The translations under genes and the position numbers were made by a program. DNA of 64,000 bases from an uncultured Bacilli bacterium (GTDB lineage Bacteria > Bacillota_I > Bacilli_A > RF39 > UBA660), in contig CAKPOS010000007.1 of assembly GCA_934176955.1 (NCBI GenBank), forward strand, positions 15,328 through 79,327. The letters are read 5' to 3'. Below, piece by piece: positions 42,417 to 58,270 of the stretch. Each line of letters begins with the position of its first letter. Position 1 is the stretch's first letter. Below the pieces are notes generated by a model. The model did not search any database, was not told where the DNA came from, and was given only the letters and a program-made list of their open reading frames with translations.

Positions 42417-42477
42417 GAAATTCTCTTTTTTGGGAATTTTAGATGTTTAAGTATTTTAAGGGAATAAGTGATAAATA

Positions 42478-43350
42478 ATGAAAGAAATATTGGATTATTT
42501 AAATTATTTGCAGGTGGTAAAGAAGTATTCTGAATGTACGATTTTGGGATATAAAGAGGATTTGTTAGAGTTATATGATTTTAAGAATGATGTATTGTGC
42601 TATGGTGAGGAAGATGTTCGAGATTATTTAGAGTACTTATATAGTAGGGGACTATCTAGAAATACGATTTCTAGGAAACTTAGTTCGATTCGTAGTTTTT
42701 ATCGTTATATGGAAGATGAGGGAAAGGTTTTTTTCAATTATTTTAAAGAAGTTTCTAATCCTAAGAAAAATGGGCGGTTGCCTAAGTATGCTCATGATAA
42801 TGATTTAGAAAAAATGTTTCATGCTTTTCCTATGGATGATGCTTATGGGCAAAGGAATACATTAATTTTGGAAATGCTTTACGCGACTGGTGTTCGAGTT
42901 AGTGAGTTGGTTAATATTCGGATTAGGGATATTAATTTGTATGATAAAACGATTCATATTTTGGGGAAAGGGCGTAAAGAGAGAATAGTTTTCTTTGGTA
43001 GTTATTGTGAAGATGTATTAAGAAAATATATAGATGATGGTTATTTGAAACTTAATCAAAAGGGAAAAGATTATTTATTTTTAAATAAAAATGGAGAGAG
43101 ATTGTCTAGTCGCTATGTTAGGGAAGTGATTGATAGGGCAGTTTTACGATGCGGAGTAGATTATCATATTTCTCCTCATATGTTGAGGCATACTTTTGCT
43201 ACGGATATGTTGAATAATGGGGCTGATTTGATGACCGTAAAAGAATTGTTAGGGCATAGCTCGGTTAATACGACAGGAATTTATACTCATGTTAGTAATG
43301 AGAGATTGAAAAGTGTTTATGAATTTGCACATCCTCGGGGGAAGGAATAA
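42478..43350 (+). CDS. Xer-type tyrosine site-specific recombinase (XerC/XerD family)
   Basis: 290 aa. ATGVRVSEL (Arg I), HMLRHTFAT (H-x-x-R), LGHSSVNTTGIYTHV (catalytic Tyr). Confidence 0.8.
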   Translation: MKEILDYLNYLQVVKKYSECTILGYKEDLLELYDFKNDVLCYGEEDVRDYLEYLYSRGLSRNTISRKLSSIRSFYRYMEDEGKVFFNYFKEVSNPKKNGRLPKYAHDNDLEKMFHAFPMDDAYGQRNTLILEMLYATGVRVSELVNIRIRDINLYDKTIHILGKGRKERIVFFGSYCEDVLRKYIDDGYLKLNQKGKDYLFLNKNGERLSSRYVREVIDRAVLRCGVDYHISPHMLRHTFATDMLNNGADLMTVKELLGHSSVNTTGIYTHVSNERLKSVYEFAHPRGKE

Positions 43351-43536
43351 TGTAACAAACAAATTTTTTTCAATTCTTTGATTTCAATGTTAATTAATAG
43401 TTTTCTTGCTTGTTTCTTATTAATTAAATAAAATTTAACTGAATTAACTTTGATGATAATAGTTGATGAAAAAATCCAAAAAAATAAAATACTAAAATGA
43501 CTTGCTTTTTTTTTATTTTTATATTATGATGATTAT

Positions 43537-43642
43537 GGCATAAGAAATTATGCTCACTCCATACGGAATAAAATGTAGGAGTGTATTCAACCAAAACCCC
43601 CTGAAATCCCAGCCGAGAGGCTGGGATACTTTGTTTATAAGG
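43537..43642 (+). ncRNA. Candidate ~100-nt small RNA whose 3' terminator hairpin is the integration target
   Basis: TTGCTT (43502-43507), 17 bp, TATGAT (43525-43530). Downstream there is no ORF but three hairpins: GCATA..TATGC, CACTCC..GGAGTG and ATCCCAGCC-GAGA-GGCTGGGAT, followed by ACTTTGTTT. Identity unknown. Confidence 0.3.
43597..43642 (+). repeat. att copy A (attL of element E1)
   Basis: CCCCCTGAAAT + 9-bp-stem GAGA-loop hairpin + ATACTTTGTTTATAAGG. The same 46-bp architecture recurs at 53972 and 63946. Confidence 0.8.
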
Positions 43643-43668
43643 ACTCCAAGCCATTTCATATATGTATT

Positions 43669-43689
43669 AGGTACCCAAATAGGTACCCA
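43669..43689 (+). repeat. E1 arm-type repeats, left end (2 x AGGTACCCA, 12-bp phasing)
   Basis: AGGTACCCA at 43669 and 43681, just outside the integrase stop codon. Confidence 0.7.
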
Positions 43690-43691
43690 TT

Positions 43692-44807
43692 TTAATTTAG
43701 TTTGTCGATAATGTCGATAATTTCATTCATTTTATTTTTAAATAGATGGGAATAAGTATTTAATGTCTCATCTATTTTTGTATGCCCTAGATATTTTGCA
43801 ACTACGTTTATACTTGCATTACTATTAATTAGTAATGATGCACAACTATGTCTAAAATCATGAATTCTTATTTGTTTAACTCCTGCTAGTTTACAATTTC
43901 TATTTTTACGACTTCTAATTCTACCGTTAGTAATTGGATCAGTATCTCCAAATACATACCACTTATTATTAAATCCATAATGTTTTTCTGAAACTTTATA
44001 TAAATCTTTTAAATCTTCAAGTAATACTTTAGGTATAGGAATTTCTCTTATGCTAGATTTTGTTTTAGGTGTAGTTACCATATAAGGTTTATTTTCATCA
44101 CCTTGAGTAGCAACTACATTTTTATTAACTCTTAAATAACTATTACCAAAATCTATATCATTCCAAGTAAGACCTCTAAGTTCACCTCTACGAAGACCAC
44201 AATAATATAAAGTTTCGTACATTGTTTTATATAAAATATCTTCTTCTACAGATATAAAACTTTTAAACTCTTCATAAGTAAAGAATAACATTTCTTTAGG
44301 CATTTCATTTGGATTAGTAAAATTAGTCATTTTATTGTAAGTAGTAGTAAAGTTAAAGTTATACCATTTACTAGCATAGTTTAATAATTCTTTAAAGAAT
44401 TTAAATAGATGATTTTTATGATTAGTTGTATAACCATAAGAATTAATTTCTTTTTTCCACTTTTCAAAATGTTCTATATTGAAATCTTTTAATTTAACAT
44501 TTTCTAAATTTTTAAAGAATTTTTGTCTATCTCTATAAGTTTTTAAAGTAGTAAATTTAACTTTATCTTCTTTATAAGCATAAAACAAAGTATATAAATC
44601 TTTAAAAGTCATATTACGATTATTATCAGCTCTTTCTGTATTAAGAGTAAGAAACTCTCTTTCAGCATTTAAAGCTTCCGTTTTAGTAAAAAACTTCTTT
44701 GACTTATATTTTCTTCTTGTGCCATCTAAATTCTTTACATAGTCATAAAATATCCATTTACGGCCATCTTTTGTCCATTCTGATTTATCTAATAATTTAA
44801 CTGCCAT
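43692..44807 (-). CDS. int: Tyrosine integrase with N-terminal arm-binding domain (E1)
   Basis: YCGLRRGEL (Arg I), HDFRHSCASLLI (H-x-x-R), LGHTKIDETLNTYSHL (Tyr). The N-terminal ~60 aa (WTKDGRKWIFYDYVKNLDGTRRKYKSKKFFTKTEA) looks like an arm-type DNA-binding domain. Confidence 0.9.
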   Translation of the reverse strand: MAVKLLDKSEWTKDGRKWIFYDYVKNLDGTRRKYKSKKFFTKTEALNAEREFLTLNTERADNNRNMTFKDLYTLFYAYKEDKVKFTTLKTYRDRQKFFKNLENVKLKDFNIEHFEKWKKEINSYGYTTNHKNHLFKFFKELLNYASKWYNFNFTTTYNKMTNFTNPNEMPKEMLFFTYEEFKSFISVEEDILYKTMYETLYYCGLRRGELRGLTWNDIDFGNSYLRVNKNVVATQGDENKPYMVTTPKTKSSIREIPIPKVLLEDLKDLYKVSEKHYGFNNKWYVFGDTDPITNGRIRSRKNRNCKLAGVKQIRIHDFRHSCASLLINSNASINVVAKYLGHTKIDETLNTYSHLFKNKMNEIIDIIDKLN

Positions 44808-45786
44808 AGTATTCCTCCTTTAAATCTAAATCATCGCTATCAAATTCTAAAGGTTCCTTATATTTAGCAGTATATAATCTTTCTGTTGCAGTTCGTTTAT
44901 TTTCTATTACAAGACCATTTCTTTCTAGTTCTTTTTTATAACTGGCAAGTAACTTACCGAAAGTTGATGGAATAACATTTAATTTTAACTTATTAACCAT
45001 ATCAGATGCTGTAAAAGTAAATTCTTTCATACTAATTGCATATCTAAAGAAAGTCATAATATTTTCATTCCATACTTCATCAGCAAAGTTATCAATATCA
45101 AGTATCAAGTTTTCATTTCTTTTCAGTACGTAATCTTTACTAGGGTAATCTCTGCTTTCATACTTTAAGTAAAAAGTAGATTTAATATTCTCGTCTTGTT
45201 TTAAAGCAATTTTACCATCTACACAGGTATCAATAGCAGTACTACCTAAAGATTTGCCTTTACGATTTAAATGATGAACTATAATAATAGCAACGTTATA
45301 ATTATTACAAAGTTTTCTTAACTGTGGAAATATATTTTGACTCATATCTTGATAATTATTTAAATCATAATTATTACCAAAATTAATTCCATTAAACATA
45401 TCTATAAATACTAATTTGCCATTATACTTTTCACTAAACTCAGCAATTTCTTTTTCAACTTTTAAGATACTTATTTGAGTTAAATTATCCTCAGGAAAAG
45501 TATAAAAGAAATCTTTATCATTTAAATCTAATTCCATAAACTTGATTCTACTAATAGTCTCTGATGGATTCATTTCTGTACTTAAATATAAAACAGGAGT
45601 TTTATTAGTCTTTAAATTTAGAAAAGGAAATCCATTAGCAACAGAGTTTGCTATTTGGAGAGCAATAGCAGATTTACCAACTTTAGCTTCTCCAAGTAAA
45701 CAATATAAACCATTTTCTCTAATCATATCTTCAATAATATAATTAATATCGACAATACTACATTTTAATTCTTCAATTGTTTTCAT
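44797..45786 (-). CDS. RepA-like RecA-fold ATPase (AAA_25-type), E1 replication/mobilisation protein
   Basis: Walker A GEAKVGKS, Walker B LVFIDMF, then IIVHHLNRKG typical of RepA/DnaB-C-like P-loop proteins. Overlaps the integrase start. Confidence 0.65.
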   Translation of the reverse strand: MKTIEELKCSIVDINYIIEDMIRENGLYCLLGEAKVGKSAIALQIANSVANGFPFLNLKTNKTPVLYLSTEMNPSETISRIKFMELDLNDKDFFYTFPEDNLTQISILKVEKEIAEFSEKYNGKLVFIDMFNGINFGNNYDLNNYQDMSQNIFPQLRKLCNNYNVAIIIVHHLNRKGKSLGSTAIDTCVDGKIALKQDENIKSTFYLKYESRDYPSKDYVLKRNENLILDIDNFADEVWNENIMTFFRYAISMKEFTFTASDMVNKLKLNVIPSTFGKLLASYKKELERNGLVIENKRTATERLYTAKYKEPLEFDSDDLDLKEEYYGS

Positions 45787-45798
45787 ATAATTTCCTTC

Positions 45799-46035
45799 CT
45801 ATAAATTTTCTTTAGCCATCTTTTCTAAATAATTAATATTTATTTTTAATTTATTAACGACTTCAATCATTGGTAATCTGTTGTTTGGTAGAGTGTAGCC
45901 TTTAAGTATAAGTTCATCTTTTATTTCACGTCTTAACTTAACAGCATTATTCTTACCAATCTCTGCAAGCTTCATCAAATCATTTATATCACACCATTGC
46001 TTGCTAATTAATTTTAAAGTTTCTCTAGCGTTCAT
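45799..46035 (-). CDS. Small DNA-binding protein, possible excisionase/regulator (E1)
   Basis: 78 aa. Paralogue of 57042-57293 in E2 (ETLKLI.KQWC...D.MKL...G.N.A.K...EIK). Position between the rep-like gene and the divergent XRE gene. Confidence 0.35.
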   Translation of the reverse strand: MNARETLKLISKQWCDINDLMKLAEIGKNNAVKLRREIKDELILKGYTLPNNRLPMIEVVNKLKININYLEKMAKENL

Positions 46036-46125
46036 ATAAAATTGTTCCTCCTTTCGTTTAAACTCTAGATAAAAATGATAACCTTTTATCTATGTAAGTG
46101 ATTACCAACTAAAGAAAGAAATTAT

Positions 46126-46204
46126 ATTGTGAGTATACTCACAATTACATATTATCATATAAAAATAATTTAAGTCAATACTTTTTGTGAGTTTAGTGAC
46201 AAAA
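46126..46204. promoter_or_regulatory. E1 switch region: 20-bp perfect palindrome plus related imperfect palindrome
   Basis: ATTGTGAGTATACTCACAAT (46126-46145) and TTTTGTGAGTTTAGTGACAAAA (46183-46204) lie in the divergent intergenic region. Downstream promoter TTGTTG-17-TGgTAAAAT (46209-46237) for the XRE gene. Confidence 0.5.
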
Positions 46205-46270
46205 TCTATTGTTGATTAATCTGATTTATGGTAAAATTAATATATAAAAAGCAAAAAGAGGTGTACTTTA

Positions 46271-46795
46271 ATGAAAGATAAAACTTTGGCTAGTGTTGTA
46301 AAAGAAGCTAGAGAAAAATTAGGTATTTCACAAAGAGAATTATCTAGAAGAACAGGTATTGATAATAATACAGTTGCTAAGATAGAAAAAGGAGAAAGAA
46401 AAAAGCCTAATATTTTATCATTAAGAAAATTAAGCGTTGTTTTAAATCTTGATTATAGAAACTTGATGGAATTATGTGATTATAGTAAAGAAGAAATAAA
46501 AGCAATTGCAGATAACAATTACTATAGTTTAGCAATTAGAAATAAAGATGCTTCAATATTAATGATGGAAGACTTAATAAATCTTGTACAAGAACAAAAA
46601 TATATTAAGTTAGTTTTAAAAGAGTTATTAGAAAATTGTGATGTTAATAATTTGAAATGTTTATCAGAACTTTCTAAAAAAGAAAAAACACAAGTAATAA
46701 AAAAACTAAATGAATTTATTGATGAGAATACTAAATCAATAGAAAATCATCAAAACTCAATTGAAAATTTAAATGGAATGTTAGGTAATAATTAA
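46271..46795 (+). CDS. XRE-family HTH regulator (E1 repressor candidate)
   Basis: HTH AREKLGISQRELSRRTGIDNNTVAKIEKGERK. C-terminal coiled region. Paralogue of 57739-58260. Confidence 0.8.
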   Translation: MKDKTLASVVKEAREKLGISQRELSRRTGIDNNTVAKIEKGERKKPNILSLRKLSVVLNLDYRNLMELCDYSKEEIKAIADNNYYSLAIRNKDASILMMEDLINLVQEQKYIKLVLKELLENCDVNNLKCLSELSKKEKTQVIKKLNEFIDENTKSIENHQNSIENLNGMLGNN

Positions 46796-46810
46796 TTTTT
46801 TCAGTCAGTA

Positions 46811-46872
46811 ATGACAGTATGACACTTATATAGATACTGTCAGTGGCTCTCGTACTGTTGTCACACTGTCAT
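46811..46872 (+). other. Conserved long hairpin H (E1 copy)
   Basis: ATGACAGTATGACAC ... GTTGTCACACTGTCAT arms around a ~30-nt loop. Homologous to 63737-63797 in E2, including loop bases (GGCTCTCGTAC versus GACTCTCATAC). Confidence 0.6.
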
Positions 46873-46875
46873 AGA

Positions 46876-46948
46876 GTTATTGTCTAGCAAGCAATGAATT
46901 TCTACTCCTGTATGAAATTCTAACGTGGGAATTATCCCAAACCCTTAA
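46876..46948. repeat. Left inverted repeat (IR-L) of the E1 cargo cassette
   Basis: Reverse complement aligns with 52986-53058. The inner 22 bp GGGAATTATCCCAAACCCTTAA matches TTAAGGGTTTGGGATAATCCCC except for one substitution (T for C). Outer parts are roughly three-quarters identical by eye. Confidence 0.75.
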
Positions 46949-46975
46949 AAGAAAATATTACAAAGAAAAAAGGAG

Positions 46976-47338
46976 ATGAAAAATAATATGAAATTGATTA
47001 AAAAGGAACAAGCAGAAATATTGAAAAATAGTGACACAAGTTCACTGTTAGAATACTCGATAGCATTAGATGAGAAAGATTTAGATTTTTGTGTAAATAC
47101 TATCACAGGAAGATATCCTGAAAAAGGTTATTGTACAAATGAAGAATGTAAAGAAATATGCTATATTCTCGAAGGTGAAGGATATATAAATAGAAAAGAT
47201 GAAACTATTAAATTTAAACAAGGTGATGTAATCTTTATAGACAAAAAAGATATTTATTTTTGGAAAGGTAATTGTAAAATAATAATGATATGCTCACCCG
47301 CATGGTATAAACAACAATGTAGGTTAATTGCTGAATGA
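46976..47338 (+). CDS. Cupin-fold small protein
   Basis: 120 aa. The EICYILEGEGYI...FKQGDVIFIDK pattern resembles a cupin barrel. No metal-ligand His pair is obvious. Confidence 0.45.
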   Translation: MKNNMKLIKKEQAEILKNSDTSSLLEYSIALDEKDLDFCVNTITGRYPEKGYCTNEECKEICYILEGEGYINRKDETIKFKQGDVIFIDKKDIYFWKGNCKIIMICSPAWYKQQCRLIAE

Positions 47339-47368
47339 TTTATAAAATGTTTTTGGGAGGAAATAAAG

Positions 47369-48682
47369 GTGAAAGAAAAATTAATTAATAATTTCTTAAG
47401 AATATCCAAAATACCAAGGGAATCAGGAAATGAGGAACATATAGCAAACTTTTTTGTTAATATTGCTAAGGAAAACAATTTAGAATATGTAAAAGATAAA
47501 AATAACAACGTATTAATTAAGAAGAAAGGAAACACTGATAGTGAACCAATTGCATTTCATTCTCACTTGGATATGGTATGTGTAAAATCAAAAGATAGTA
47601 ATCATAATTTTAAGAAAGATGGAATTGATGTCATAATTAATGGCGACAAAGTTACAGCTAATAATACTTCATTAGGAGCTGATCAGGGTGTGGGTTTAGC
47701 TATTATGCTAACGCTAATAGAGGACAAAGAAACGGAACACCCAAATTTAGAATTTCTTTTTACTACAGAAGAAGAAACAACTTTTAATGGAGTAGTTGCA
47801 TTTCCGTTTTCTCTTGTCGAGAGTAAAAGTATAATTAACTTGGATAGCGATAAAGATGATGCTATTTTTGTTGGAGCATATGGCGATATATGTAATGAAT
47901 ATGTATTTAAAGGAAAGTTGATTGAAAATACACTGCCCAGCTATAAAATTTTAATTGAAGACTTACCTGGTGGAAATTCTGGTAATAATGTTGAATTGTC
48001 TGAAAGAAATGCTATAACTACTATGGCTAAATTATTGAGTAATAAAGAAATCTATATAGCAAATATAAATGGCGGTACATCCGATAATGATATAGCTACA
48101 TCTTGTGAAGTAATAATTAGTACAAATCTTAATGTTAATGATATTTTCAGTGAAGTTGGTGTGAAAGTGACTGAAACAGATAACAAATTTACGTTTTCTA
48201 GGCAAGATACAGATTACATATTAAAACAAATATTGCAGTTAAAATGTGGATTTATTTCTTCTGAAAAGGCATCGGCTAATCTTGGGTTAATTAGTACAGG
48301 AAATGATGAGGTAAAAATTTATTATGTAATCAGAAGTATGGATGAAAAAGAATTAGAGGAAATTAGCAATAACAGTAAAAAATTAAATAATAACTTTATT
48401 GTGTCCGAAGTATATAGAGATTCTGTATGGGAAGTAAATAAAGACTCTAAACTAACTGAAAAATATAAAGAAATATATCATATGGAATATTCAGAATATC
48501 CTATAGAAAGTATTGTTCCTGGTGGTAATGAGTGTTCTGCAATTAAAAATAGAATTAAGGAAGTTGATATAATTTCAATTGGATGTAATATGGAAAATAT
48601 ACATACTACCGAAGAAATTACTTATGTTAGTTCGTGGGTAAAAATATATAATTTATTGTTAAATTTAATTAAATCAATATAA
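47369..48682 (+). CDS. pepD: M20C-family dipeptidase (PepD / Xaa-His dipeptidase-like)
   Basis: GTG start. FLRISKIPRESGNEEHIANF...NVLIKKKG...HSHLDMV, GADQGVG and TTEEET follow the PepD pattern. Confidence 0.65.
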   Translation: MKEKLINNFLRISKIPRESGNEEHIANFFVNIAKENNLEYVKDKNNNVLIKKKGNTDSEPIAFHSHLDMVCVKSKDSNHNFKKDGIDVIINGDKVTANNTSLGADQGVGLAIMLTLIEDKETEHPNLEFLFTTEEETTFNGVVAFPFSLVESKSIINLDSDKDDAIFVGAYGDICNEYVFKGKLIENTLPSYKILIEDLPGGNSGNNVELSERNAITTMAKLLSNKEIYIANINGGTSDNDIATSCEVIISTNLNVNDIFSEVGVKVTETDNKFTFSRQDTDYILKQILQLKCGFISSEKASANLGLISTGNDEVKIYYVIRSMDEKELEEISNNSKKLNNNFIVSEVYRDSVWEVNKDSKLTEKYKEIYHMEYSEYPIESIVPGGNECSAIKNRIKEVDIISIGCNMENIHTTEEITYVSSWVKIYNLLLNLIKSI

Positions 48683-48709
48683 ATTTTGAAATAAAGGAAG
48701 GTTAAAGAT

Positions 48710-49855
48710 ATGGATAAAGTAAAGATTCTATGGAGTGGTATAACAGGAAGAACTGGTAAAGAGGCATTCCAATTATCAAAGGAAAGTGATAGTGTAGAAA
48801 TCGTAGCAGGTATATGTAGGAATGATAGTAATTTTTATAATTATGATGAACTAGATAAAATAACTGAAGATTTTGATGTTATTGTGGATTTTTCTCATAA
48901 AGATAGTTTTGATAAAGTATTAAGTTATGCTTTGAAAGTTGGTAAACCAATTATAATTGGAACTGCAGGATTAACTGAAGAACAAATGAATGCTTTTGAA
49001 GAAGCTTCTAAAATTATACCTGTATTTAGAGGTGGAAATTTTAGATTTGATGTTAAGAATTTTATCGATCAAGTTGTTGCGTATGCAAGAACTTGTGAAG
49101 AAAATAATATAGAGTTAATTGAAACGCATTATAAAACTAAAAAAGTACCAAGTGAAACAGCAAAAGTTGTTGCTAAAAGAGTTTTAGATGAAACTGGTAA
49201 GAATGTGGAAATAAAATCATTTTTAGAATATGATGAGCTAATAAATGATTGGAAAGTTGCAGATTTACATTGTAGAGTTGTAGGATTTAAAGAATTAGCT
49301 AGAGATGTTTTAAATATTGCTGTAATGATGAAAAATAAGAAAGCAGATGGAATTTATGATTTAGATAGATTATTTAGAGAAAGAAATATAGATGATTTAT
49401 ATAAATTCTTAATTGAAGCGAAGAAACAAACTTATGCAAATGAAAATGTAAAAAAAGTAAATCCTTCAAGAAAAGGTTCTCATGATTATCATTATGAAAA
49501 TGATAAGATGATGTATCATGATACTTATTTTGGTGGAACTAAATTTATGGGGGAAGAAGTTGTATATTTTAATAATGAGACTCCAATTTGGGGAATGAAC
49601 TATTATGGTGTTACTATTGATGAAACACTTAGTGAGGAAGCTATGGATAAAGCATTAAGACCTGCATTAATGATGGTTGGAGAAGATACTAATGTAATAC
49701 CAGTAAGAGGTCCAAGAAATTATCAAAATGGTGAATATAAATATAATTTTTCAGTAACTGGAAATTTAGAAAACTTTGAAGGATGCGAAACAATTCATAA
49801 AGGAAAAACAAAAGTTTATGAGTTAAAATGTCATGGTGGAATAATTAAAAGATAG
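48710..49855 (+). CDS. DapB-like reductase fused to a DUF5680-like C-terminal domain
   Basis: DapB motifs GITGRTGKE, VDFSHKDS, IIGTAGLTEEQ and ETHYKTKKVPSETA. The C-terminal ~150 aa (TYANE...HDYHYENDKMMYHDTYFGGTKFMGEEVVYFNNETPIWGMNYYG) resembles DUF5680 as I recall it. Confidence 0.5.
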   Translation: MDKVKILWSGITGRTGKEAFQLSKESDSVEIVAGICRNDSNFYNYDELDKITEDFDVIVDFSHKDSFDKVLSYALKVGKPIIIGTAGLTEEQMNAFEEASKIIPVFRGGNFRFDVKNFIDQVVAYARTCEENNIELIETHYKTKKVPSETAKVVAKRVLDETGKNVEIKSFLEYDELINDWKVADLHCRVVGFKELARDVLNIAVMMKNKKADGIYDLDRLFRERNIDDLYKFLIEAKKQTYANENVKKVNPSRKGSHDYHYENDKMMYHDTYFGGTKFMGEEVVYFNNETPIWGMNYYGVTIDETLSEEAMDKALRPALMMVGEDTNVIPVRGPRNYQNGEYKYNFSVTGNLENFEGCETIHKGKTKVYELKCHGGIIKR

Positions 49856-49866
49856 GAGAAATATTT

Positions 49867-50553
49867 ATGAAAAAAACAATAGCAATTACAGGTGGTAGTG
49901 ATGGTTTAGGTAAAGCTATTGCCAGAAGACTTAATGCTGAGAATAATGTTATTATAATTTCAAAGGATGAAGAAAGTTTAATTAAAACTGCTGAAGAAAT
50001 TAATTGTGATTATTATGTTTGCGATGTAACTGATTATAAACAAGTAAATAATACAATAAACGATATTTTAGACAAAAATAATAAAATAGATATATTAATA
50101 AATAATGCAGGAATTTGGTTAGCAGGAGATTTGACCGAAACTGATTATGAAAGAATAAGTAATTGTATTGACGTTAATACAAAAGGGCCTATATATATGA
50201 CAAAAGCAGTATTGCCAAGTATGTATGAAAATAAAGAAGGATTAATTATAAATGTATGTTCACAAGCAAGTTTTGATAGTGATGACTTCTCAACTGTATA
50301 TAATGCATCTAAGTGGGCTATGAGAGGATTTAATCGTTCTATACAAAAAGATGTAAGTAAAAAAGGGGTAAAAGTAACTGGTTTTTATCCTGGGTTTATG
50401 CAAACAGATATATTTAAAAAAGCAGGTAATGACTATGATACTTCAACAGGTTTGGAAGTAGAAAAAGTGGCAAAAGCAATAGAATTTATTGTAAATTGCG
50501 ATGAAGATGTTATTATTCCAGAATTTGGAATTAAAGATATAGAAAATTATTAG
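49867..50553 (+). CDS. Short-chain dehydrogenase/reductase (SDR)
   Basis: TGGSDGLGKAIA cofactor motif, NNAG, catalytic YNASK. Confidence 0.85.
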   Translation: MKKTIAITGGSDGLGKAIARRLNAENNVIIISKDEESLIKTAEEINCDYYVCDVTDYKQVNNTINDILDKNNKIDILINNAGIWLAGDLTETDYERISNCIDVNTKGPIYMTKAVLPSMYENKEGLIINVCSQASFDSDDFSTVYNASKWAMRGFNRSIQKDVSKKGVKVTGFYPGFMQTDIFKKAGNDYDTSTGLEVEKVAKAIEFIVNCDEDVIIPEFGIKDIENY

Positions 50554-50584
50554 AGTAGTTTGATTTATAAATCAGGAGGTTTAA

Positions 50585-51505
50585 ATGGGTAATAAAACTG
50601 TGAAAAAAAAGCAATATGAAAGCTTCAATCTATATTATTTAAATCTGAGCAAAGTATATGAAATATCAATGATGATTAATAATATTATTGTATCTTCATA
50701 TGAAAGAGAAACTGGAAATAGTACAACTAAAAGGAAGTATAAAAAATCATCACTTGATGGACAAATTGATTCTAAATATTTGGCTAGCGTAAAATCAATA
50801 TTAGAAACAGGTAGTTCTAAAGAAAAAGTAACATCTTCAAAAGTTACAGAAAAATTAGATGTTAAAACGACAAAATCAATTTTATTGAAAATGATTAAAA
50901 ACAAATCTAAACAAGTGGAATTTTTAGATAAATGTGATGAGGGAGAATTAGTTTTGTTGAAAAATGTTAAATTATCAATTTTAGATAAAGATAATTTAAG
51001 ACAAATGTTACTTTTAAAGAGAGATGCCTTAAAAGGAATACAAGTTGAAGGAATTGAAATTAATAATATTATAAACTCTATGATAAATGACTATTCATAT
51101 ATTTTGTCCGGAAGTATTAAAGATGAATCTGGAACACAACAATTTATTATTAAAATACCATTTGAAATAGAAAATGAGTTTGAAAACAATTATAGTGTAG
51201 ATGATATTATTCTAGGTAATGTTTCTGTAATTGGTATATATAAAAATAAAAATACAATTGAGGACATAACTAACAATACATTAAATTATTTTTCAAGAGC
51301 AGATTTCATAAATAGTAATGAAAGTAAATATATAAAAAGTGGTAAACAAAATACACAAGACACTAATAATTTTGATGGTATAAAAGAGGCTCATTACATA
51401 GATGTAATAGGAATTATTCAAGAAATAAAATTTGATGATGATGTTAAAGTTGGATTATGGGCTAGATTTAAAGCATTTTTGGAGAAAAAGAAAAATGAGA
51501 AGTAA
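50585..51505 (+). CDS. Hypothetical protein, partner of the ClpB-like AAA+ gene (possible DolA-like)
   Basis: 306 aa with no recognisable catalytic motif. Its 3' end overlaps the start of the AAA+ gene by 11 nt, implying co-translation. Confidence 0.35.
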   Translation: MGNKTVKKKQYESFNLYYLNLSKVYEISMMINNIIVSSYERETGNSTTKRKYKKSSLDGQIDSKYLASVKSILETGSSKEKVTSSKVTEKLDVKTTKSILLKMIKNKSKQVEFLDKCDEGELVLLKNVKLSILDKDNLRQMLLLKRDALKGIQVEGIEINNIINSMINDYSYILSGSIKDESGTQQFIIKIPFEIENEFENNYSVDDIILGNVSVIGIYKNKNTIEDITNNTLNYFSRADFINSNESKYIKSGKQNTQDTNNFDGIKEAHYIDVIGIIQEIKFDDDVKVGLWARFKAFLEKKKNEK

Positions 51506-52970
51506 ACTTTATTATTATAGAGATAAAAATGAATTTGATAGATTTTATAATGAGAGCGACAAAAAAATTGTTCCATTTGAATTTGTAGAAACAAAAAAAA
51601 TAATAGAAGAAGAATCTGGCTATATTATAGATATAACTAATATGGTATCATTTACTGATTCTAATCAATCAAATATCTATTCTGCCATAATTAATTTAAA
51701 GGATTTGGATGAAACAAATCAAATAATAATAAATAAAGATTGGTCAGAAAAAGCTTTGTATTTATTTCCAACAATTTTTGAACAAGCAGTTCCAATCTTT
51801 GATGAAGAAATTACTAAAGAAATTTGCTTAGAAAGTTTTAAAAGAACTCTTTGGTATTATAATGAATCTCAATATGAAAGTTTGCTAAAACATATCGAAG
51901 AAAACAAAATAATAATAACAAATTTTGCAACTTTACAAAAATATAATAATTATGACTATGAAATTTTGCTAGACTTAACAAGTACAATTGATAGTATAAA
52001 AGGAAGTCAGCAATTAATCTTTTTATTAGAACAATTTTTTGTCACTGCCAATACAAACATAAAAGCAATTATAAACTCCAATAGACTTGATGAAATAAAA
52101 GAAACATTGAGGCTCACATTTAAAGAATATAAAAACATTTCAGATTTATATTCGAATATTACTGATAAAAATAATAAATCTTCAGAAATAAAAGAACCAG
52201 TAAGAATTATTGATTTAAATAAAAAGGAAATTTCACAATTGTTTAATAATATAAGTAATAGCTTGATAGGACACGTGGAATTTAAAAATTATTTAATATC
52301 CCAATTAGAAAAGTTTGTAGTTTTAAATAAAATTGGAGAGCGCAAAGTGTTTTCAATGTTTTTATTAGGAAAACCAGGATTAGGTAAAACAGAAATTGGC
52401 AAAATAATTAGTAAATCGTTAAATGAGGATTCTAACGTTATAAAAATAAATTTTGGGAATTACTCAAGCCAAGATGCTCTTAATAGTTTAATTGGCAGTC
52501 CGGCAGGATATATAGGATGTGAAGGTGGAGAATTAGGGAAAAAAGTTAATTCAAATAAAGTTGGAGTTATAATTTGCGATGAATTTGAAAAAGCGGATTC
52601 AGAAATAAAAAACTTTTTTCTCGAATTATTAGAAGATGGAAAATTTACAGATTCAATGAGCAGGGAATATGATATAAATGGTTATATAGTAATATTTACA
52701 TCAAATATAAAAAATGAAAATGAATTTAAAAGTAAGATATCTCCTGAATTTGAGTCGAGAGTAAACTTAATTTGTGAATTTACACCACTAACATATGAAG
52801 AAAAAGCACAATATGTAAGATCCCAAATAAATAGATGTTTAGAAAAAATGAAAAAGAATGATATAAATATTAATTTCAAAGCAAGTGATGTAGATGTTAT
52901 TTTTAGTGATACAGATGATTTGAGAGAGATAAAAAACAGAATTTTAAATAAAATATCTGAATTACTTTAA
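51495..52970 (+). CDS. AAA+ ATPase with ClpA/ClpB D2-type (AAA_2) module and unknown ~280-aa N-terminal domain (possible DolB-like)
   Basis: ATG at 51495 (MRSKLYYY). LIGHVEFKNYL..., Walker A FLLGKPGLGKTEIGK, LIGSPAGYIGCEGGELG, Walker B VIICDEFEKADSEIKNFFLELLEDGKFTDS and IVIFTSN reproduce the ClpB D2 motif order. Confidence 0.75.
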   Translation: MRSKLYYYRDKNEFDRFYNESDKKIVPFEFVETKKIIEEESGYIIDITNMVSFTDSNQSNIYSAIINLKDLDETNQIIINKDWSEKALYLFPTIFEQAVPIFDEEITKEICLESFKRTLWYYNESQYESLLKHIEENKIIITNFATLQKYNNYDYEILLDLTSTIDSIKGSQQLIFLLEQFFVTANTNIKAIINSNRLDEIKETLRLTFKEYKNISDLYSNITDKNNKSSEIKEPVRIIDLNKKEISQLFNNISNSLIGHVEFKNYLISQLEKFVVLNKIGERKVFSMFLLGKPGLGKTEIGKIISKSLNEDSNVIKINFGNYSSQDALNSLIGSPAGYIGCEGGELGKKVNSNKVGVIICDEFEKADSEIKNFFLELLEDGKFTDSMSREYDINGYIVIFTSNIKNENEFKSKISPEFESRVNLICEFTPLTYEEKAQYVRSQINRCLEKMKKNDININFKASDVDVIFSDTDDLREIKNRILNKISELL

Positions 52971-52985
52971 ATAGTTCAATGTTAA

Positions 52986-53058
52986 TTAAGGGTTTGGGAT
53001 AATCCCCATATATGAATTGTTGCGGGAGTAAGAATTCAGTGCTGGCACAGACAACAAT
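52986..53058. repeat. Right inverted repeat (IR-R) of the E1 cargo cassette
   Basis: See IR-L. TTAAGGGTTTGGGATAATCCCC at 52986-53007, then GGAGTAAGAATTCAGTGCTGGCACAGACAACAAT aligning with the reverse complement of 46876-46910. Confidence 0.75.
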
Positions 53059-53079
53059 TTACTCCCTTAAAGACATTTA

Positions 53080-53112
53080 AAGCACTGCCTGAAAAAAGAT
53101 AGTGCTTATTTT
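53080..53112. terminator. Hairpin terminator between convergent genes
   Basis: AAGCACT ... AGTGCTT stem followed by ATTTTTT. Confidence 0.45.
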
Positions 53113-53424
53113 TTAATTAAAATTAATCATTTTAAATTTAGTGATATCTATGATTTTTAAATTGTATTTTATTCTTAAAATTAGTTCTATTTGCGGTATT
53201 AACTTATCAATATTACATCTAACATTAAATACATCAATTGCAGAGTTGATATGATTACGAAGTGGGCAATCTGATAAACAATTTCTGCTATGTCCATTTG
53301 CTAGATAAAATGCTATTGTATCAGGTATAACAAAGTTAATAAGATATTCATTATAATTGTTATAAAATGGTAATAATATTTTTTCAAATTCTTTATCAGT
53401 TATATCTTCTTTGCCTTTAATCAT
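53113..53424 (-). CDS. Hypothetical protein (E1)
   Basis: 103-aa ORF whose start overlaps the stop of the TnpV-like gene by 4 nt (ATGA). No motif recognised. Confidence 0.4.
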   Translation of the reverse strand: MIKGKEDITDKEFEKILLPFYNNYNEYLINFVIPDTIAFYLANGHSRNCLSDCPLRNHINSAIDVFNVRCNIDKLIPQIELILRIKYNLKIIDITKFKMINFN

Positions 53425-53783
53425 ATTTCATCTCCATAGACGATTTCTCTTAAAACTATTTTTTCAGCAATGTTTTTACAAGTATTCATTTTTTGAATCC
53501 ATAACATTTGATTTTTAGCTTTTAATTTTTCAGTAATAGTACCATCGAATTCTATTAGTTCATTTATTAAATAATTAACTTTATTTCCTGCTTCTGTACT
53601 TACTGAAAAAAGATGTTCATTTAATTTATCTTTCATTAGTAATTCTTGATATAATGCCTTCTTATGATTCTTTAAATATTCTAATCTTAATAATCCATAT
53701 TTATTTAATTGTTTGTTTTCTTTTTCAGCAAGTGCTAAATCAGGCAAGTAATAATCTCCATATTTTTTATAATTTATTTTCAT
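53421..53783 (-). CDS. tnpV: TnpV-family protein
   Basis: YKKYGDYYLPDL..., KYGLLRLEYLKNHKKALYQELLMKDKLNEHL, and QMLWIQKMNTCKNIAEKIVLREIVY follow the TnpV pattern of clostridial transposons, from memory. Confidence 0.6.
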   Translation of the reverse strand: MKINYKKYGDYYLPDLALAEKENKQLNKYGLLRLEYLKNHKKALYQELLMKDKLNEHLFSVSTEAGNKVNYLINELIEFDGTITEKLKAKNQMLWIQKMNTCKNIAEKIVLREIVYGDEI

Positions 53784-53836
53784 AATTACAAATCCTTTCT
53801 TTAGTGAAGAATATTAGTAGTATTGTTTTTAATTTT

Positions 53837-53857
53837 AGGTACCCATTTAGGTACTCA
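53837..53857 (+). repeat. E1 arm-type repeats, right end (AGGTACCCA + AGGTACTCA, 12-bp phasing)
   Basis: Same 9-mer, orientation and phasing as at 43669-43689. Confidence 0.7.
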
Positions 53858-53971
53858 ATTACTAAAATCTCTTAAAATTATATAAATTTTTATAATTAGA
53901 ATTAATTTATAATTGCTTAAAATATAAGGATTTAATTAGCAATAATTTATTTTATATATGAAAGATTTTGG

Positions 53972-54017
53972 CCCCCTGAAATTCCCCTCGAGAGAGGGGA
54001 ATACTTTTGTTTATAGG
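53972..54017 (+). repeat. att copy B (junction E1/E2)
   Basis: CCCCCTGAAAT + ATTCCCCTC-GAGA-GAGGGGAAT hairpin + ACTTTTGTTTATAGG. Confidence 0.8.
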
Positions 54018-54043
54018 GGATTTTTAACTATTTTGGATTTATC

Positions 54044-54085
54044 TAGATACCATACTAGATACCAAATATTAGTTTTTAGATACTA
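54044..54085 (+). repeat. E2 arm-type repeats, left end (TAGATACCA x2 + TAGATACTA)
   Basis: 9-mers at 54044, 54056 and 54077. Confidence 0.7.
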
Positions 54086-54108
54086 AATATTTTTTTATTT
54101 GAGTTTAT

Positions 54109-55041
54109 TTAAATACTTAGATTTAAATTATCCATAGTATTTTTTACATCAGTTAGATTATTTGGAAACATATGAGCATATGTGTCTAATGTTTCTTTAG
54201 TACTAGCATGTCCTAAATATTTTGATACAGTTGTTACTGGTTGACCAGTATTTATTAGTAAAGAAGCACAACTATGTCTAAAAGAGTGTAGTGGAATTCT
54301 TCGGATATCTGCATTTTTAGCAATTCTACCATTAATTCTAGACATCATTTTGAAGGTTAATGGTTCATGTTCACCGAAAATAAACCATTTGTCATTGAAG
54401 CCATAGTACTTCTTTTTTTCATTGTATAAATTTACTAAATCATTATATAAAACTTCAGTAAGAGGTAAAGTCCTAATACTTTTAGATGTTTTAGGTGGAG
54501 TTAGTTCATAATATTTTTGACTATCCTTAACACTATTAGCTTGTTTAGTAATAGATACTAACTTATTATTCCAATCTATATCAGACCATTGAAGTCCGCG
54601 ACATTCACCACGACGTAATCCATAATAATATAACATTTCAAACATTGTTTTATCATTTAAACTAGTAGTTCCTGTTATATATTTTTGAAATTCTTCAAAA
54701 GTGTAAACATCGTTTTCTTTTTTCATTTCATTAGGGTCTTTAAAAAACTCTATTTTTTTATAAAATTTCATTAGATTGATATCATACATTTTCATTCCCC
54801 AATTAAGAATAATCTTTAAGAACTTTTGAACATCATTTCTAGTAGAGCATTTAATGGGTTTATTCCATAAATCTTGTTGGAACTTATGATATAGATTTCC
54901 ATCCATATCTTTTAATTTAACATTTTCAAAATCAGCAAAATACCTTCTTCTTTTTAAATATGTTTCCATTGTTCTTCTTCGAACCTTATTTTTTTGAGAT
55001 TCAATATATTGGTCAGTTAGAGTACCAAATGTCATATCCAT
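54109..55041 (-). CDS. int: Tyrosine integrase lacking the N-terminal arm-binding domain (E2)
   Basis: YYGLRRGEC, HSFRHSCASLLI, LGHASTKETLDTYAHM. Met1 aligns with about residue 64 of the E1 integrase (both then share ENVKLKD). Confidence 0.85.
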   Translation of the reverse strand: MDMTFGTLTDQYIESQKNKVRRRTMETYLKRRRYFADFENVKLKDMDGNLYHKFQQDLWNKPIKCSTRNDVQKFLKIILNWGMKMYDINLMKFYKKIEFFKDPNEMKKENDVYTFEEFQKYITGTTSLNDKTMFEMLYYYGLRRGECRGLQWSDIDWNNKLVSITKQANSVKDSQKYYELTPPKTSKSIRTLPLTEVLYNDLVNLYNEKKKYYGFNDKWFIFGEHEPLTFKMMSRINGRIAKNADIRRIPLHSFRHSCASLLINTGQPVTTVSKYLGHASTKETLDTYAHMFPNNLTDVKNTMDNLNLSI

Positions 55042-55821
55042 ATCTCCACCAATTTCTTCTCTAAATAGATTGTGAATCCTTTAGATTTGATAAATTCATT
55101 ATAATCATCTTGAAGTAGAGTATAAGATGCATTACCATCTTTTTGTTTCCAAAATTGATTTGAATTTAGAAATTTACCTTTAACAGTTTCATAAATATTT
55201 TTACCATTCTTATCTTTCTTTTGAATAGGTACTAATTTCTTTTCTCCTTTTTTATTAGTTATTTTGTGTTTTACTTGATGACCATTTTCATCTAGTTCAA
55301 ACACCTTTCTTTTAACTTCATTAACTACTGGAGTAAAATATATATACATATGTGGTGTAGATTCATCAAGATGTTATATTTTCACTACCTACATATTCTT
55401 TAATAAAATTTAAACTTTCGTCAAAGAACATTTTTATTTCAGCTGGTAAATTATGATTTTCATCTATAATTACATGTCTAATTGGTTTACCAGCATTATC
55501 TCCAGTTTTATAAACTTCTCCAGTATCTTTAAATTCCATACCATAATGTTCAAAAAATTCTTGACCACTTGATATAATTAATCCATTTAAAACCTTTGTG
55601 CTTTTTTTATTTGGATTATAGTTTATATTATTAGAATAAAGATAATCAAATGTTGAACTTGCTAGAGTAGGTCCATCATAATTTATTAATTCTATATTAT
55701 ATGGAGTTCTAGTACTATCATATTTACCAGAACCTTTTCTTTCCTTTAATTCTTTATCAAGTCCACCAATATCTGATGCTTTAAACTTTTCTAATCGTAG
55801 TGCTTGTTTTTCTGAGTACAT
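55032..55821 (-). pseudogene. mob: MobV-family relaxase, frameshifted and 3'-truncated
   Basis: N-terminal ORF (55366-55821) has RLEKFKASDIGGLDKELKER...YNIEL. The metal motif HLDESTPHM is encoded at 55347-55373 in a different frame, continuing into ORF 55032-55349. Total is only ~256 aa. Confidence 0.75.
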
Positions 55822-56075
55822 TTATTTTGACCTCCTTTCAATGCTTGTTTTAAAATAATACTCTATCTCACTAGGGCATAATATATGCCCAACCGTGAGC
55901 TAAGGAATATTCCTTAGAATCCTTTATGCTTGTAATAGCTAGAACCAATACCTAATAAATAGGTAATGGCATTCGCTATCACAAGATTAATTAAACGATA
56001 TACCATATCATTTAATTAATGGATAATGAATTTACTATCGCCACTTCCAACCTTACAGGTCAGAACGTGCCACGT
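55822..56075. other. Structured non-coding region, candidate oriT of E2
   Basis: Noticeably more G+C than its surroundings. Nested hairpin CTCAC-TA-GGGCAT-AATAT-ATGCCC-AACC-GTGAG, perfect palindrome CTAAGGAATATTCCTTAG, and TACCT..AGGTA. Immediately 5' of the relaxase relic. Confidence 0.4.
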
Positions 56076-57026
56076 TTATTCATTATTTTCGGAAGGTTCT
56101 TCATAAGAACAATGCCATAATCTTTCGTTAGCAGTTCTTTTACTTGTTATATGAAGACCTTCTTTTTCAAGCAATTGTAGGTTTCTTTGAATTAAACCTC
56201 CAAGTTGTGTTGGTGTTAATAAAATATTTGTTTTAGATAAGATATCTGATATAGTGTAATCAAAATCTTTCTTAGCAACTGCATATTTTATAAATAGAAG
56301 TAGATTATAATCGGTTTCATCATCAGTATTTTCATCTATAACACTAAATGTTTGATTTTCATTTCTTTTCAAATTTAATTCTAATCTACTAAAATCCCTA
56401 CCTTTATAATCTAAAGTTAGTTTATTACAATTACTTTTTGACTCTTTTAATTTCATAATTCCAGATGCATCAGCAGTTAGTCCGACACTACCCATAATTC
56501 CATTACTTTTATTTAAGTGATGTGTAACAAATAATGTGCAGTTATATTTTCTACATATTTCTTTAAACTTTTTAAATACAACATTATTTATTTCTTGATA
56601 ATCATTTTGATTATAGTTACTATCAAATTTAATGTCTTTAAACATATCAATTATTACGAATAAAGGTTCTTTATCAAAGGTTAATTCATGAATGTCTCTT
56701 TCAATATCTCTGATATAAAAATCTGGAATATCATCTATGTCTATAATGTGAAGTTTATCTACATTAGGTTTCAAATTCATTAATTTAAATCGGTCTTATA
56801 ATTGATTTATATCGCCCTCTGTGGTAATATATAAGACATGAGAGGGATTTACTTTGAATCCTAAAAAATCTTCTCCAGTAGTAAGAGAGAAGGCAAGTTG
56901 CTGAGCAAACATTGACTTGCCAACCTTAGGATGAGATACAAGTAGATAAACTCCATTTGATATCATTAGGTTTTCGACGATGATATCTTTTTTTATGCTT
57001 TTATTTACTTCGTTTATTTGTTTCAA
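56076..57026 (-). pseudogene. RepA-like RecA-fold ATPase interrupted by one in-frame TAA (E2)
   Basis: ORFs 56796-57026 (Walker A HPKVGKS) and 56076-56780 are in the same frame, separated only by the TAA at 56796-56798 (...DINQL*DRFKLMNLKP...). Collinear with the intact E1 gene 44797-45786. Confidence 0.8.
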
Positions 57027-57041
57027 TTTGTATCTCCTTTC

Positions 57042-57293
57042 TTACATGTTTTTAATTAATTGTTTACTAGAAACTCTAGATTCTAAATAAGAAATATCTA
57101 TATCAAAGAAAGCTACAACTTCTTTAGTTGGTACAACAGACTTTGGAATAAGATAACCTTGTTTTTCAAGCTTTTCTTTTATTTCCTTTTTAGCCTTTAG
57201 TGCAGAATTTCTTCCTAGATGTCCAAGTTTCATAATATCTTCTAGAGTGCACCATTGTTTAGCTATTAATTTTAATGTTTCTTCTGCAGACAT
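57042..57293 (-). CDS. Small DNA-binding protein, possible excisionase/regulator (E2)
   Basis: Paralogue of 45799-46035. Confidence 0.35.
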   Translation of the reverse strand: MSAEETLKLIAKQWCTLEDIMKLGHLGRNSALKAKKEIKEKLEKQGYLIPKSVVPTKEVVAFFDIDISYLESRVSSKQLIKNM

Positions 57294-57323
57294 TTTTATC
57301 CTTCTTTCTAAATTTTTTAATAA

Positions 57324-57575
57324 TTATTTTTGTGGTGATACATAAACGTAATATGTATCATCTAATGAATTATAGATAATATATTTTTTCTTTCTTAATT
57401 CTCTAAATGCTAGAGCAACATCTTTTTTACTATCATTACTAAGAGAGTAGAGGTCAGTATTTTCAAGTTCATCATTAGATCTAACTAATAGAGAGTTAAG
57501 CATACCTATAGCGCTAACTGACAAATCTTTAGGTATTACATATTCATTAGTAGTTTGTTTCTTTAGTAATTTCAT
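57324..57575 (-). CDS. Hypothetical small protein (83 aa)
   Basis: ATG at 57575 is preceded by an AGGAGGA RBS (57581-57588). The longer 108-aa track ORF has no RBS. Confidence 0.4.
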   Translation of the reverse strand: MKLLKKQTTNEYVIPKDLSVSAIGMLNSLLVRSNDELENTDLYSLSNDSKKDVALAFRELRKKKYIIYNSLDDTYYVYVSPQK

Positions 57576-57598
57576 ACAAGTCCTCCTTTCTATAATTA

Positions 57599-57667
57599 TG
57601 TCCGATATTAAGGACAATTCAAATATAGCATTGTCCGAAAAAGATGTCAATACTTTTTGTCCGAAAA
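57599..57667. promoter_or_regulatory. E2 switch region: three TGTCCGA sites (one within the inverted repeat TGTCC-N8-GGACA)
   Basis: TGTCCGATATTAAGGACA (57599-57616). TTGTCCGAAAA at 57631 and 57657 (26-bp phasing). Downstream promoter TAGACA-17-TGcTAAAAT (57670-57698). Confidence 0.5.
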
Positions 57668-58260: not shown

Positions 58261-58270
58261 AGGAGATGAG

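Follow-up and report, generated by a model that had tools for sequence, protein, structure and literature searches.

A 64-kb window (64,000 nt; contig CAKPOS010000007.1 of GenBank assembly GCA_934176955.1, positions 15,328 to 79,327 of the forward strand) from an uncultured Bacilli bacterium contains an integrative element, here called E1, which spans 43.6-54.0 kb of the window and carries six cargo genes bracketed by a pair of imperfect inverted repeats. The question raised by this locus is what such repeats are and why they stand at the two edges of a cargo bay. An earlier note on the window had offered three answers: insertion of the cargo into the apex of a pre-existing long palindrome, the terminal repeats of a non-autonomous transposon, or an invertible segment. 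The two arms of E1 are instead diverged copies of a single conserved module of ~84 nt, and this module, judged by comparison of related elements, is part of the element backbone and not of the cargo. As to function, we favor a joint claim, held tentatively as a whole and including a well-supported structural part: a structured backbone module marks the edges of the bay and acts there as a site resembling an origin of transfer (oriT). The window has a low GC content (about 25-30%).

The limits of the arms were set with covariance model R1 and extend slightly beyond those given in the earlier note (46876-46948 and 52986-53058):

46867..46950, + strand: left arm, one copy of the module, with its tip (..TCCCAAACCCT) toward the cargo; model R1 89.8 bits, E 5e-17.
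52984..53066, - strand: right arm, a second, diverged copy of the module, with its tip toward the cargo and including the 5' box GGGAGTA; model R1 79.1 bits, E 1e-14.

The inverted repeat described in the earlier note is real, though it is recovered only when indels are allowed. By gapped local alignment, the reverse complement of 46876-46948 matched 52986-53058 at 57 of 74 columns (77%, 4 gap columns, score 58), and the best inverted score among 2963 random pairs of 160-nt window segments was 38; when aligned ungapped, the E1 arms matched at 43/73 positions. The inner 22-mers (GGGAATTATCCCAAACCCTTAA and TTAAGGGTTTGGGATAATCCCC) are one substitution apart (21/22), as had been noted, and nothing else in the window matched them when up to 3 mismatches were allowed (0 expected from 100 shuffles). 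All six cargo genes, from the cupin gene to the AAA+ gene, lie inside the arms. The observation that no transposase or recombinase is among them also stands, since five of the six cargo proteins belong to other Pfam families and the PADLOC candidate PDC-M37A is the sole match of the 306-aa protein. An nhmmer profile and model R1 each found only the two arms in the 64-kb window, in agreement with the statement that E2, the tandem neighbor of E1, has no copy of the repeat. The further remark that the arms are best conserved at their inner ends was correct for the near-identity of the inner 22 nt and misleading as to its cause: the likeness is due to the invariant TCCCA-A-CCCT tail of the module, not to a relation between left and right arm, and the same tail is common to two loci on other contigs (L027 and L083; such loci are numbered here with the prefix L).

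Model R1 recognized 27 distinct versions of the module. From 5' to 3' they consist of the box GGGAGTA (degenerate in left arms), a nearly invariant segment ATTGTCTAGC(C/A)AGCA(C/A)TGAA, hairpin 1, a spacer of ~6 nt, hairpin 2 and a tail A-(A/T)-N-CCCT. Hairpin 1 (10 bp) is composed of an outer stem of 6 bp and an inner stem of 3-4 bp; hairpin 2 is TGGGA-loop-TCCCA, with an invariant stem and a loop of variable length (about 1-5 nt by how the stem is drawn). In the left arm of E1 the two hairpins read GAATTTC-TAC-TCCT-GTA-T-GAAATTC and TGGGA-ATTA-TCCCA. The outer stem of hairpin 1 has undergone compensatory change (GAATTT/AAATTC to GAAAAC/GTTTTC in the right arm of L067), and its inner stem occurs as GTAC/GTAC, GT/AC, AT/AT or GTC/GAC, with differing loops. 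In the model alignment, 88% of cells were paired over the 15 modeled pairs and 6/15 pairs were changed on both sides, figures that are somewhat inflated since this alignment was fitted to the structure; the pairing level was reached in 0 of 500 shuffles, and slid controls gave 23-55%. An independent MAFFT alignment gave 84% paired cells and 5 pairs changed on both sides. Covariation together with loops of variable length suggests that the module acts through folded single strands, as in transfer or replication intermediates, and the variable loop of hairpin 2 favors nucleic-acid pairing over a duplex site of fixed spacing.

Other candidate features of the module were tried and rejected. Right arms lack the tiny open reading frame (ORF) of the left arm (MNFYSCMKF), which L067 has only in interrupted form, and a conserved -10 element inside the module was inconsistent across variants. 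The box GGGAGTA, which is found in most right arms and in the arms of the serine-recombinase-type elements introduced below, is the exact complement of the hairpin 1 loop TACTCCC; pairing between the two was rejected, as mismatches were uncompensated. The complementarity itself (alignment columns 1-7 and 38-44) could mean an alternative pairing or a repeated protein site.

Relatives of E1 were reached by following TnpV and XRE homologues to their contigs. The identical XRE protein is carried by 22 contigs; cargo and orientation are the same in the 10 places shown, which are therefore uninformative on variation. Beyond these, the module carriers belong to two TnpV-carrying families from gut metagenomes, a tyrosine-integrase type (E1-like) and a Tn4451-like serine-recombinase type. 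The module is always 3' of and co-directional with a backbone gene, namely TnpV (with or without the 103-aa gene described below) or, for the left copy, XRE; the one locus with a non-backbone upstream gene is L027 (DUF3848). Its tip faces variable genes in every case. The genes downstream are co-directional with the module in L029, L081 and L105 and convergent in E1-type right arms and in L098.

An exact scan of 185,579 species genomes (GTDB) with the 18-mer tip ATTATCCCAAACCCTTAA gave 20 single hits, of which 17 were chance matches (18-mer only) and three were full arms (L021, L027 and L029). Each of the latter is a single copy in a related element: a TnpV or DUF3848 gene precedes it, and a NikA-like ribbon-helix-helix gene, with restriction-modification genes beyond, begins ~20 nt after it. 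The same exact 18-mer gave 0 hits in IMG/VR and 28 hits in JGI metagenomes, all confined to the 18-mer and hence chance. An IMG/VR scan with TAGCCAGCACTGAATTT gave eight further copies, with a TnpV-sized ORF just upstream in seven of them (not in L096), while protein-seeded IMG/VR scans (TnpV, the NikA-like protein and a TnpV alignment) gave no relatives. Scanning of the upstream genes identified a TnpX-like serine recombinase and TnpV in L098 and L105 and ORFs of matching size in L104; L081 and L106 likewise have the recombinase-TnpV layout. In distant plasmid TnpV loci (L077-79), cargo follows tnpV and the module is absent. Half of the carriers have exactly the TnpX-TnpV-(accessory genes) layout of Tn4451/Tn4453 (TnpX, TnpV and an accessory gene after tnpV), with cargo directly after tnpV (PMC3158075); unlike these transposons, the module carriers have no TnpZ Mob protein, and E1 uses a tyrosine integrase.

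Some of these loci deserve description in their own right. The apparently cargo-less Tn4451-like element in L098 (2347-5433) is made up of a 90-aa ORF, a serine recombinase, TnpV, the module and a NikA-like gene; it ends ~16 nt from a convergent Peptidase_C1 gene and adjoins a second element carrying NT5C/nucleoside-hydrolase and HD-domain genes. L027 (4449-5020) and L029 (1558-2138) share a 580-bp block (arm, NikA-like gene, terminator and promoter) at 91% identity in contexts that are otherwise unrelated. The block begins exactly at the 5' end of the arm and behaves as a portable leader unit for restriction-modification cargo.

The place of the module in the element was established from the integrase-type relatives. 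The gene order of E1 is integrase (-), AAA_25 (-), 78-aa protein (-), XRE (+), six cargo genes (+), 103-aa protein (-) and TnpV (-), and its features other than the arms are as follows:

43579..43650, no strand: left end of E1 (attL region); homology to L064 (95%) begins at 43579.
43692..44807, - strand: E1 tyrosine integrase; Phage_integrase family, with weak XerA/C/D and integron-integrase NCBIfam matches.
44797..45786, - strand: AAA_25/DnaB_C-like replication helicase-type protein; Pfam AAA_25, 1e-22.
45799..46035, - strand: 78-aa protein in the position of an Xis; no family match, kept in all integrase-type relatives.
46271..46795, + strand: XRE-family helix-turn-helix regulator, the final backbone gene ahead of the left arm; Pfam HTH_3, 7e-14.
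46811..46866, + strand: candidate cargo promoter ATGACA-16-GATACT from a promoter scan; putative function.
46976..50553, + strand: cargo part 1, encoding a cupin, an M20 peptidase, a DapB_N+DUF5680 fusion and a short-chain dehydrogenase (Pfam).
50585..52970, + strand: cargo part 2, a candidate defense pair, PDC-M37 A (306 aa) and B (Clp-like AAA_2 ATPase); PADLOC 4e-76 and 4e-132.
53078..53113, no strand: hairpin AAGCACTGCC..GATAGTGCTT resembling a bidirectional terminator, its T-run lying on the + strand; read directly.
53113..53424, - strand: 103-aa backbone protein; no family match, always paired with TnpV in integrase-type elements.
53421..53783, - strand: TnpV-family protein, the backbone gene 5' of the module in both element families; Pfam TnpV, 9e-34.
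53971..54020, no strand: right end (attR) of E1, doubling as the left end of E2, the tandem element; homology to L064 stops at 53980.

E1 and L064 were 95% identical over 43579-46948 and 94% identical over 52988-53980, with nothing in common between. The ends of the element are fixed by this comparison, in which homology is lost precisely at the tips of the two arms. The earlier note had suggested looking for different cargos within these arms, and three further lineages with the same inverted pair carry them. L064-66 (XRE 89% identical to that of E1) have the same backbone, with inverted arms in the two corresponding places, and carry M.HpaII/R.HpaII, ASCH, AAA_13 and a 234-aa gene; in L067-68 (XRE 60% identical; both arms present) the cargo is Dcm/Eco47II, ASCH and a 730-aa gene; and in L084-89 (TnpV 68% identical; both arms present in L084-87 and L089) it is Dcm, a 370-aa gene, ASCH and a YobI-ATPase. 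An inward-pointing arm pair thus brackets the bay in 4/5 of the integrase-type lineages that have both bay edges in view, and the four bracketed bays (E1, L064-66, L067-68 and L084-89) hold four unrelated gene sets, mostly defense genes. The whole bay differs even between close relatives in integrase-type elements. In L060-63 the right arm adjoins the same PDC-M37 pair as in E1 (78% identical in nucleotides between L060 and E1), and DUF3800, MmeI and AAA_21 come next, with the far end outside the fetched DNA. Cargo also changes piecemeal within the bay, as L005 (6256-7833) is an E1 variant that differs in part of its cargo only: the dehydrogenase and PDC-M37A genes are swapped for 210-, 200- and 95-aa ORFs, and the arms and the rest are the same.

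Genes have also been inserted outside the right arm. In L059 (8686-10500), an RVT_1 reverse transcriptase of 398 aa, possibly a retron or defense reverse transcriptase with ~600 nt of non-coding DNA upstream, lies between the 103-aa gene and the right arm, and in L069 (16390-17049) a 219-aa gene lies between the right arm and the 103/99-aa gene.

The exchange of the bay was dissected by sliding identity in one pair, E1 and L064, on which the placement of the crossovers rests. Identity was 78-90% over 46530-46890, 97% in the left arm and 70-80% over the right arm and spacer (52986-53100), as against 95-98% outside, including 53101 onward. The exchanged block is therefore larger than the cargo and includes the arms, which puts the crossovers in the XRE gene and near the terminator, and the pattern of identity indicates that the bays of these two elements were probably swapped by homologous recombination between family members, in the flanking backbone. 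The left arm is near-identical in the two elements because it is constrained. The left arm of E1 is 98% like that of L064, 80-86% like the right arms of other elements and only 68% like the right arm of E1; since it is nearer to the right arms of other elements than to its own partner, the palindrome as such is not maintained. The module is more conserved than the surrounding coding DNA, and each arm is kept by purifying selection and not by a need for complementarity to the partner arm.

What would keep such a module? An oriT-like site is the best single guess, because no relaxase gene was found in elements of either family, NikA-like genes follow the tip in several carriers, the minimal L098 element is apparently cargo-less and so keeps the module even with nothing to express, and the tandem neighbors of E1 carry Mob_Pre genes or remnants. 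The NikA-like ribbon-helix-helix gene starts ~20 nt past the tip in L027, L029, L080-83, L098 and L106; E1 has none. An oriT is matched in architecture only, by hairpin 1 with its covariation, by hairpin 2 and by the invariant TCCCA-A-CCCT tail. A role in cis at the DNA level fits best because the downstream genes run with the module in some elements and toward it in others, and an RNA element would not tolerate both of these arrangements. In the proposed mechanism, the module would act as folded single-stranded DNA, with hairpins 5' of a conserved single-stranded tail that would be nicked by the relaxase of a helper element, the putative nick lying in or beside ..TCCCAAACCC|T. Relaxase-less elements could then be mobilized by the helper, and two inverted copies would let either strand be launched. 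With the nick 3' of the hairpins, transfer from either arm would have the cargo as its leading region, and the defense genes would enter the recipient first.

Relaxase-less islands that carry only an oriT, with defense genes concentrated beside it, have been described (bioRxiv 10.64898/2026.01.13.699239), and a cargo that forms the leading region matches this reported concentration. Elements of the E1 type resemble these iOriTs (relaxase-less oriT-only integrative elements) in that they are small, carry an integrase and no relaxase or mating genes, and have defense genes adjoining the site (bioRxiv 10.64898/2026.01.13.699239). The module likewise resembles the oriT-nikA origins (R64; the staphylococcal oriT mimics with SmpO) in that it is short, non-coding and conserved, places its hairpins 5' of a conserved tail and is followed in some members by a NikA-like gene (PMC8136818). 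It differs from these systems in having no similarity to a known oriT, no identified helper and two inverted copies per element.

Several points weigh against an oriT-like role. Neither a nick site nor a helper element with matching sequence was found, and a relaxase gene is missing as noted. The module gave no sequence match to a known oriT or to plasmid sequence: blastn of both arms against 72,556 plasmids gave nothing or chance matches, and tblastn of the NikA-like protein against plasmids gave no match. A scan of 42000-59000 with Rfam 15 gave no match at E up to 1, and the balance of G-T and A-C cells favored neither strand as the folded one. The Pfam scores of the NikA-like proteins are borderline (26-33 bits against a cut-off of 27), and ribbon-helix-helix proteins of this type may also serve simply as repressors. 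It would be unusual for a small element to carry two oriTs in inverted orientation. At least one copy of the module is dispensable, because the L069-76 lineage has the right arm only, the left having been deleted to a degenerate 5' remnant that is recognizable by alignment. Lastly, the left arms and most serine-type arms are placed like 5' leaders, which a role in RNA would explain as well.

The DNA next to the arms and at the ends of E1 was annotated further. The promoter-like block (TATAGATAC) 3' of XRE is kept in E1, L064, L067, L069 and L071 by alignment and was read in L084; the candidate promoter within it is flanked by TGACA-GTA-TGACA and TGTCA-CAC-TGTCA repeats, and in a consensus promoter scan it scored no better than shuffles. 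The terminator-like hairpin outside the right arm is kept in L060, L064, L067, L071 and L084. A perfect palindrome, ATTGTGAGTATACTCACAAT (46126-46145; TGTGAGTATACTCACA, 46128-46143), is found in the divergent intergenic region between the 78-aa and XRE genes, and a similar one (TGTGAGTACGTACTCACA) immediately 5' of the arm in L098. Among the cargo, the four-gene set at 46976-50553 gave no PADLOC match and occupies a bay that otherwise holds defense systems; the PDC-M37 A/B pair (50585-52970) also gives a weaker DolB match. Phage relatives of the AAA_25 protein carry primase/helicase annotation. The single-sequence AlphaFold2 model of the 103-aa protein (predicted local distance difference test, pLDDT, of 61) was too poor for a fold search, and this protein showed no similarity to NikA-like or DUF3848 proteins. 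The AlphaFold2 model of TnpV (pLDDT 85) gave no fold match in the PDB, and TnpV had no sequence match among solved structures.

The attachment repeat (CCCCCTGAAAT, a hairpin and TACTTTGTTTATA) was read directly in attL (43594-43645), with its second copy at 53971-54020; with its GC-rich hairpin it resembles the 3' end of a small gene or a terminator. E1 and E2 are in tandem at a single attachment site. E2 looks decayed here (at 55366-57026), with its AAA_25 gene split into 76-aa and 234-aa ORFs and only a 151-aa fragment of Mob_Pre left; the AAA_25 protein of E2 is intact (316 aa) in L003, L005 and L006, and in other strains the position of E2 is taken by a different element (integrase and full Mob_Pre, L002). 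E1-like elements were also found integrated beside recG (L064, L069 and L084).

An RNA-level boundary element is an unlikely alternative to the oriT-like site. The forward arm would be a structured 5' leader and, in integrase-type elements, the right arm a structured 3' trailer of the cargo operon, with effects on mRNA stability, processing or read-through between backbone and cargo. The positions of the arms speak for it: the left one separates the conserved promoter/operator block from the first cargo gene, the right one follows the last cargo stop codon by 2-58 nt and precedes the terminator, and in serine-type elements a perfect TATAAT stands ~12 nt 5' of the core TAGCCAGC and the NikA-like gene starts ~20 nt after the module. 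The covariation of the hairpins also speaks for it. An RNA element works one way, however, and the module is equally conserved whether it is co-directional or convergent with the adjacent genes. The first cargo genes are wholly different from element to element, the cargo of L084 has its own promoter past the arm, and the apparently cargo-less element retains the module. The module also lacks a U-tract for intrinsic termination and, as above, matches no Rfam family.

Lower in probability, and in our view doubtful, is that the module serves as an insulator or as an array of binding sites, at which a backbone protein (TnpV, the 103-aa protein or a repressor) would act on duplex or cruciform DNA and so keep the regulation of backbone and cargo apart. 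The module is always directly 3' of TnpV or XRE, TnpV has been proposed to be Xis-like (PMC3158075), and the box GGGAGTA and loop TACTCCC are inverted copies of a 7-mer resembling half-sites of the palindrome TGTGAGTATACTCACA and of the palindrome before the L098 arm. Stem covariation and variable loops would be unexpected of a duplex protein site, however, and mismatches between box and loop are uncompensated. The 8-mer TGNGAGTA was not enriched in the window, and TnpV has no recognizable match to a DNA-binding fold.

Also improbable is that the arms are dedicated recombination sites, at which a recombinase (the element integrase or a host or helper enzyme) would cross over at the CCCT tip so that cassettes are exchanged between inverted sites in the manner of dif modules. 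Family-wide homology does stop sharply right after CCCT at both arms, and inversely oriented sites around a recombinase-free cargo are the architecture of the dif modules of Acinetobacter plasmids, whose cargo blocks are shuffled among related backbones (PMC13141974, PMC6449649). Junctions fall at the 5' end of the module too (the 580-bp block of L027 and L029; the gene insertions outside the right arm in L059 and L069), which could be read in favor of this explanation; junctions at both ends are nevertheless better explained by a conserved island set in variable DNA than by crossover at a single point. The sole recent swap that could be dissected crossed over outside the arms, through flanking homology, and no inversion products were seen, though inverted sites should invert. 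The dif sites are 28-bp XerC-spacer-XerD sites, whereas the module is ~84 nt with covarying hairpins, and E1-type elements have one bay each and not arrays. A dif-like 11-6-11 (XerC-6 bp-XerD) site was not evident in the module by eye, with no Bacillota dif model run.

The same degree of improbability attaches to a broader version, in which the hairpin-forming module would be the recognition site of a hitherto undescribed cassette-loading system, built into small integrative elements and present on tyrosine- and serine-recombinase elements alike, with foreign gene blocks (mostly defense) captured or exchanged at the CCCT tip, TnpV binding the site and the module serving in the manner of an integron attachment site. 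Integron attC sites are likewise imperfect palindromes that function as folded single strands and mark cassette boundaries. The module differs in being specific to the backbone instead of occurring once per cassette, in having two inverted copies and in the lack of a cassette array. No attC-like core was evident by eye, no formal search having been made, and no GTTRRRY core was seen by eye at the tip (junction ..TCCCAAACCCT), with no pattern search run. The E1 integrase gave weak partial matches to integron-integrase models, far below the cut-off.

The mechanisms proposed in the earlier note have become very improbable. In favor of a hairpin-targeting mechanism that placed the cargo in the apex of an already existing long palindrome, the tips of E1 would join as CCCTTAA|TTAAGGG and cargo always begins right at the tips. 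An uninterrupted palindrome was found in none of the scans, however, elements with a single arm already have cargo abutting the same tip, the tip-adjacent TTAA is not common to other elements (CCCTCAAT, CCCTTTTAT, CCCTAATA) and the arms are not kept complementary. The remaining two proposals, transposon ends and an invertible segment, both start from inverted repeats around a gene block without an internal recombinase and together retain next to no credence. All of the defining features tested exclude transposon ends: the arms keep their orthologous places in the backbone (following XRE and following TnpV-103aa) as cargos change, some relatives have the right arm alone, conservation peaks at the inner and not at the outer ends, target-site duplication is absent (nothing is common to the outer flanks ..CATAGAG and TTACTCCC..), and instead of the dispersed copies of a miniature inverted-repeat transposable element there are 2 copies in 64 kb and, in the 185,579 species genomes, 3 true loci, all in related elements. 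As for inversion, all 16 two-arm loci (L001-6, L064-66, L067-68, L084-87 and L089) have their cargo co-directional with XRE, in a survey of assemblies, where a minority orientation would be hidden, and no serine invertase lies beside the 6-kb segment, the sole recombinase being the E1 integrase 2 kb away.

The idea of a cargo hotspot, TnpV elements and oriT-only islands are already known. Defense hotspots of phage satellites and of integrative and conjugative elements (P4/P2, SXT) also present a fixed spot in a conserved mobile backbone at which unrelated defense systems replace each other; to our knowledge, these are bounded by conserved genes and not by paired inverted structured repeats. 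Literature searches returned no description of the module or of paired inverted structured repeats bounding a cargo bay.

Small defense-carrying integrative islands are abundant in gut bacteria, and how they move and swap their cargo is mostly obscure. The present comparison defines a family of such islands with a fixed cargo bay, the edges of which are marked by a structured 84-nt sequence common to elements with unrelated integration enzymes. As an origin of transfer, the module would explain how relaxase-less islands spread and why defense genes lie beside it, and covariance model R1 would provide a sequence handle for finding both the islands and their helpers; as a recombination site, it would represent a new cassette-capture system. 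Under either reading, the module is a practical marker of the boundary between backbone and cargo in metagenomic contigs.

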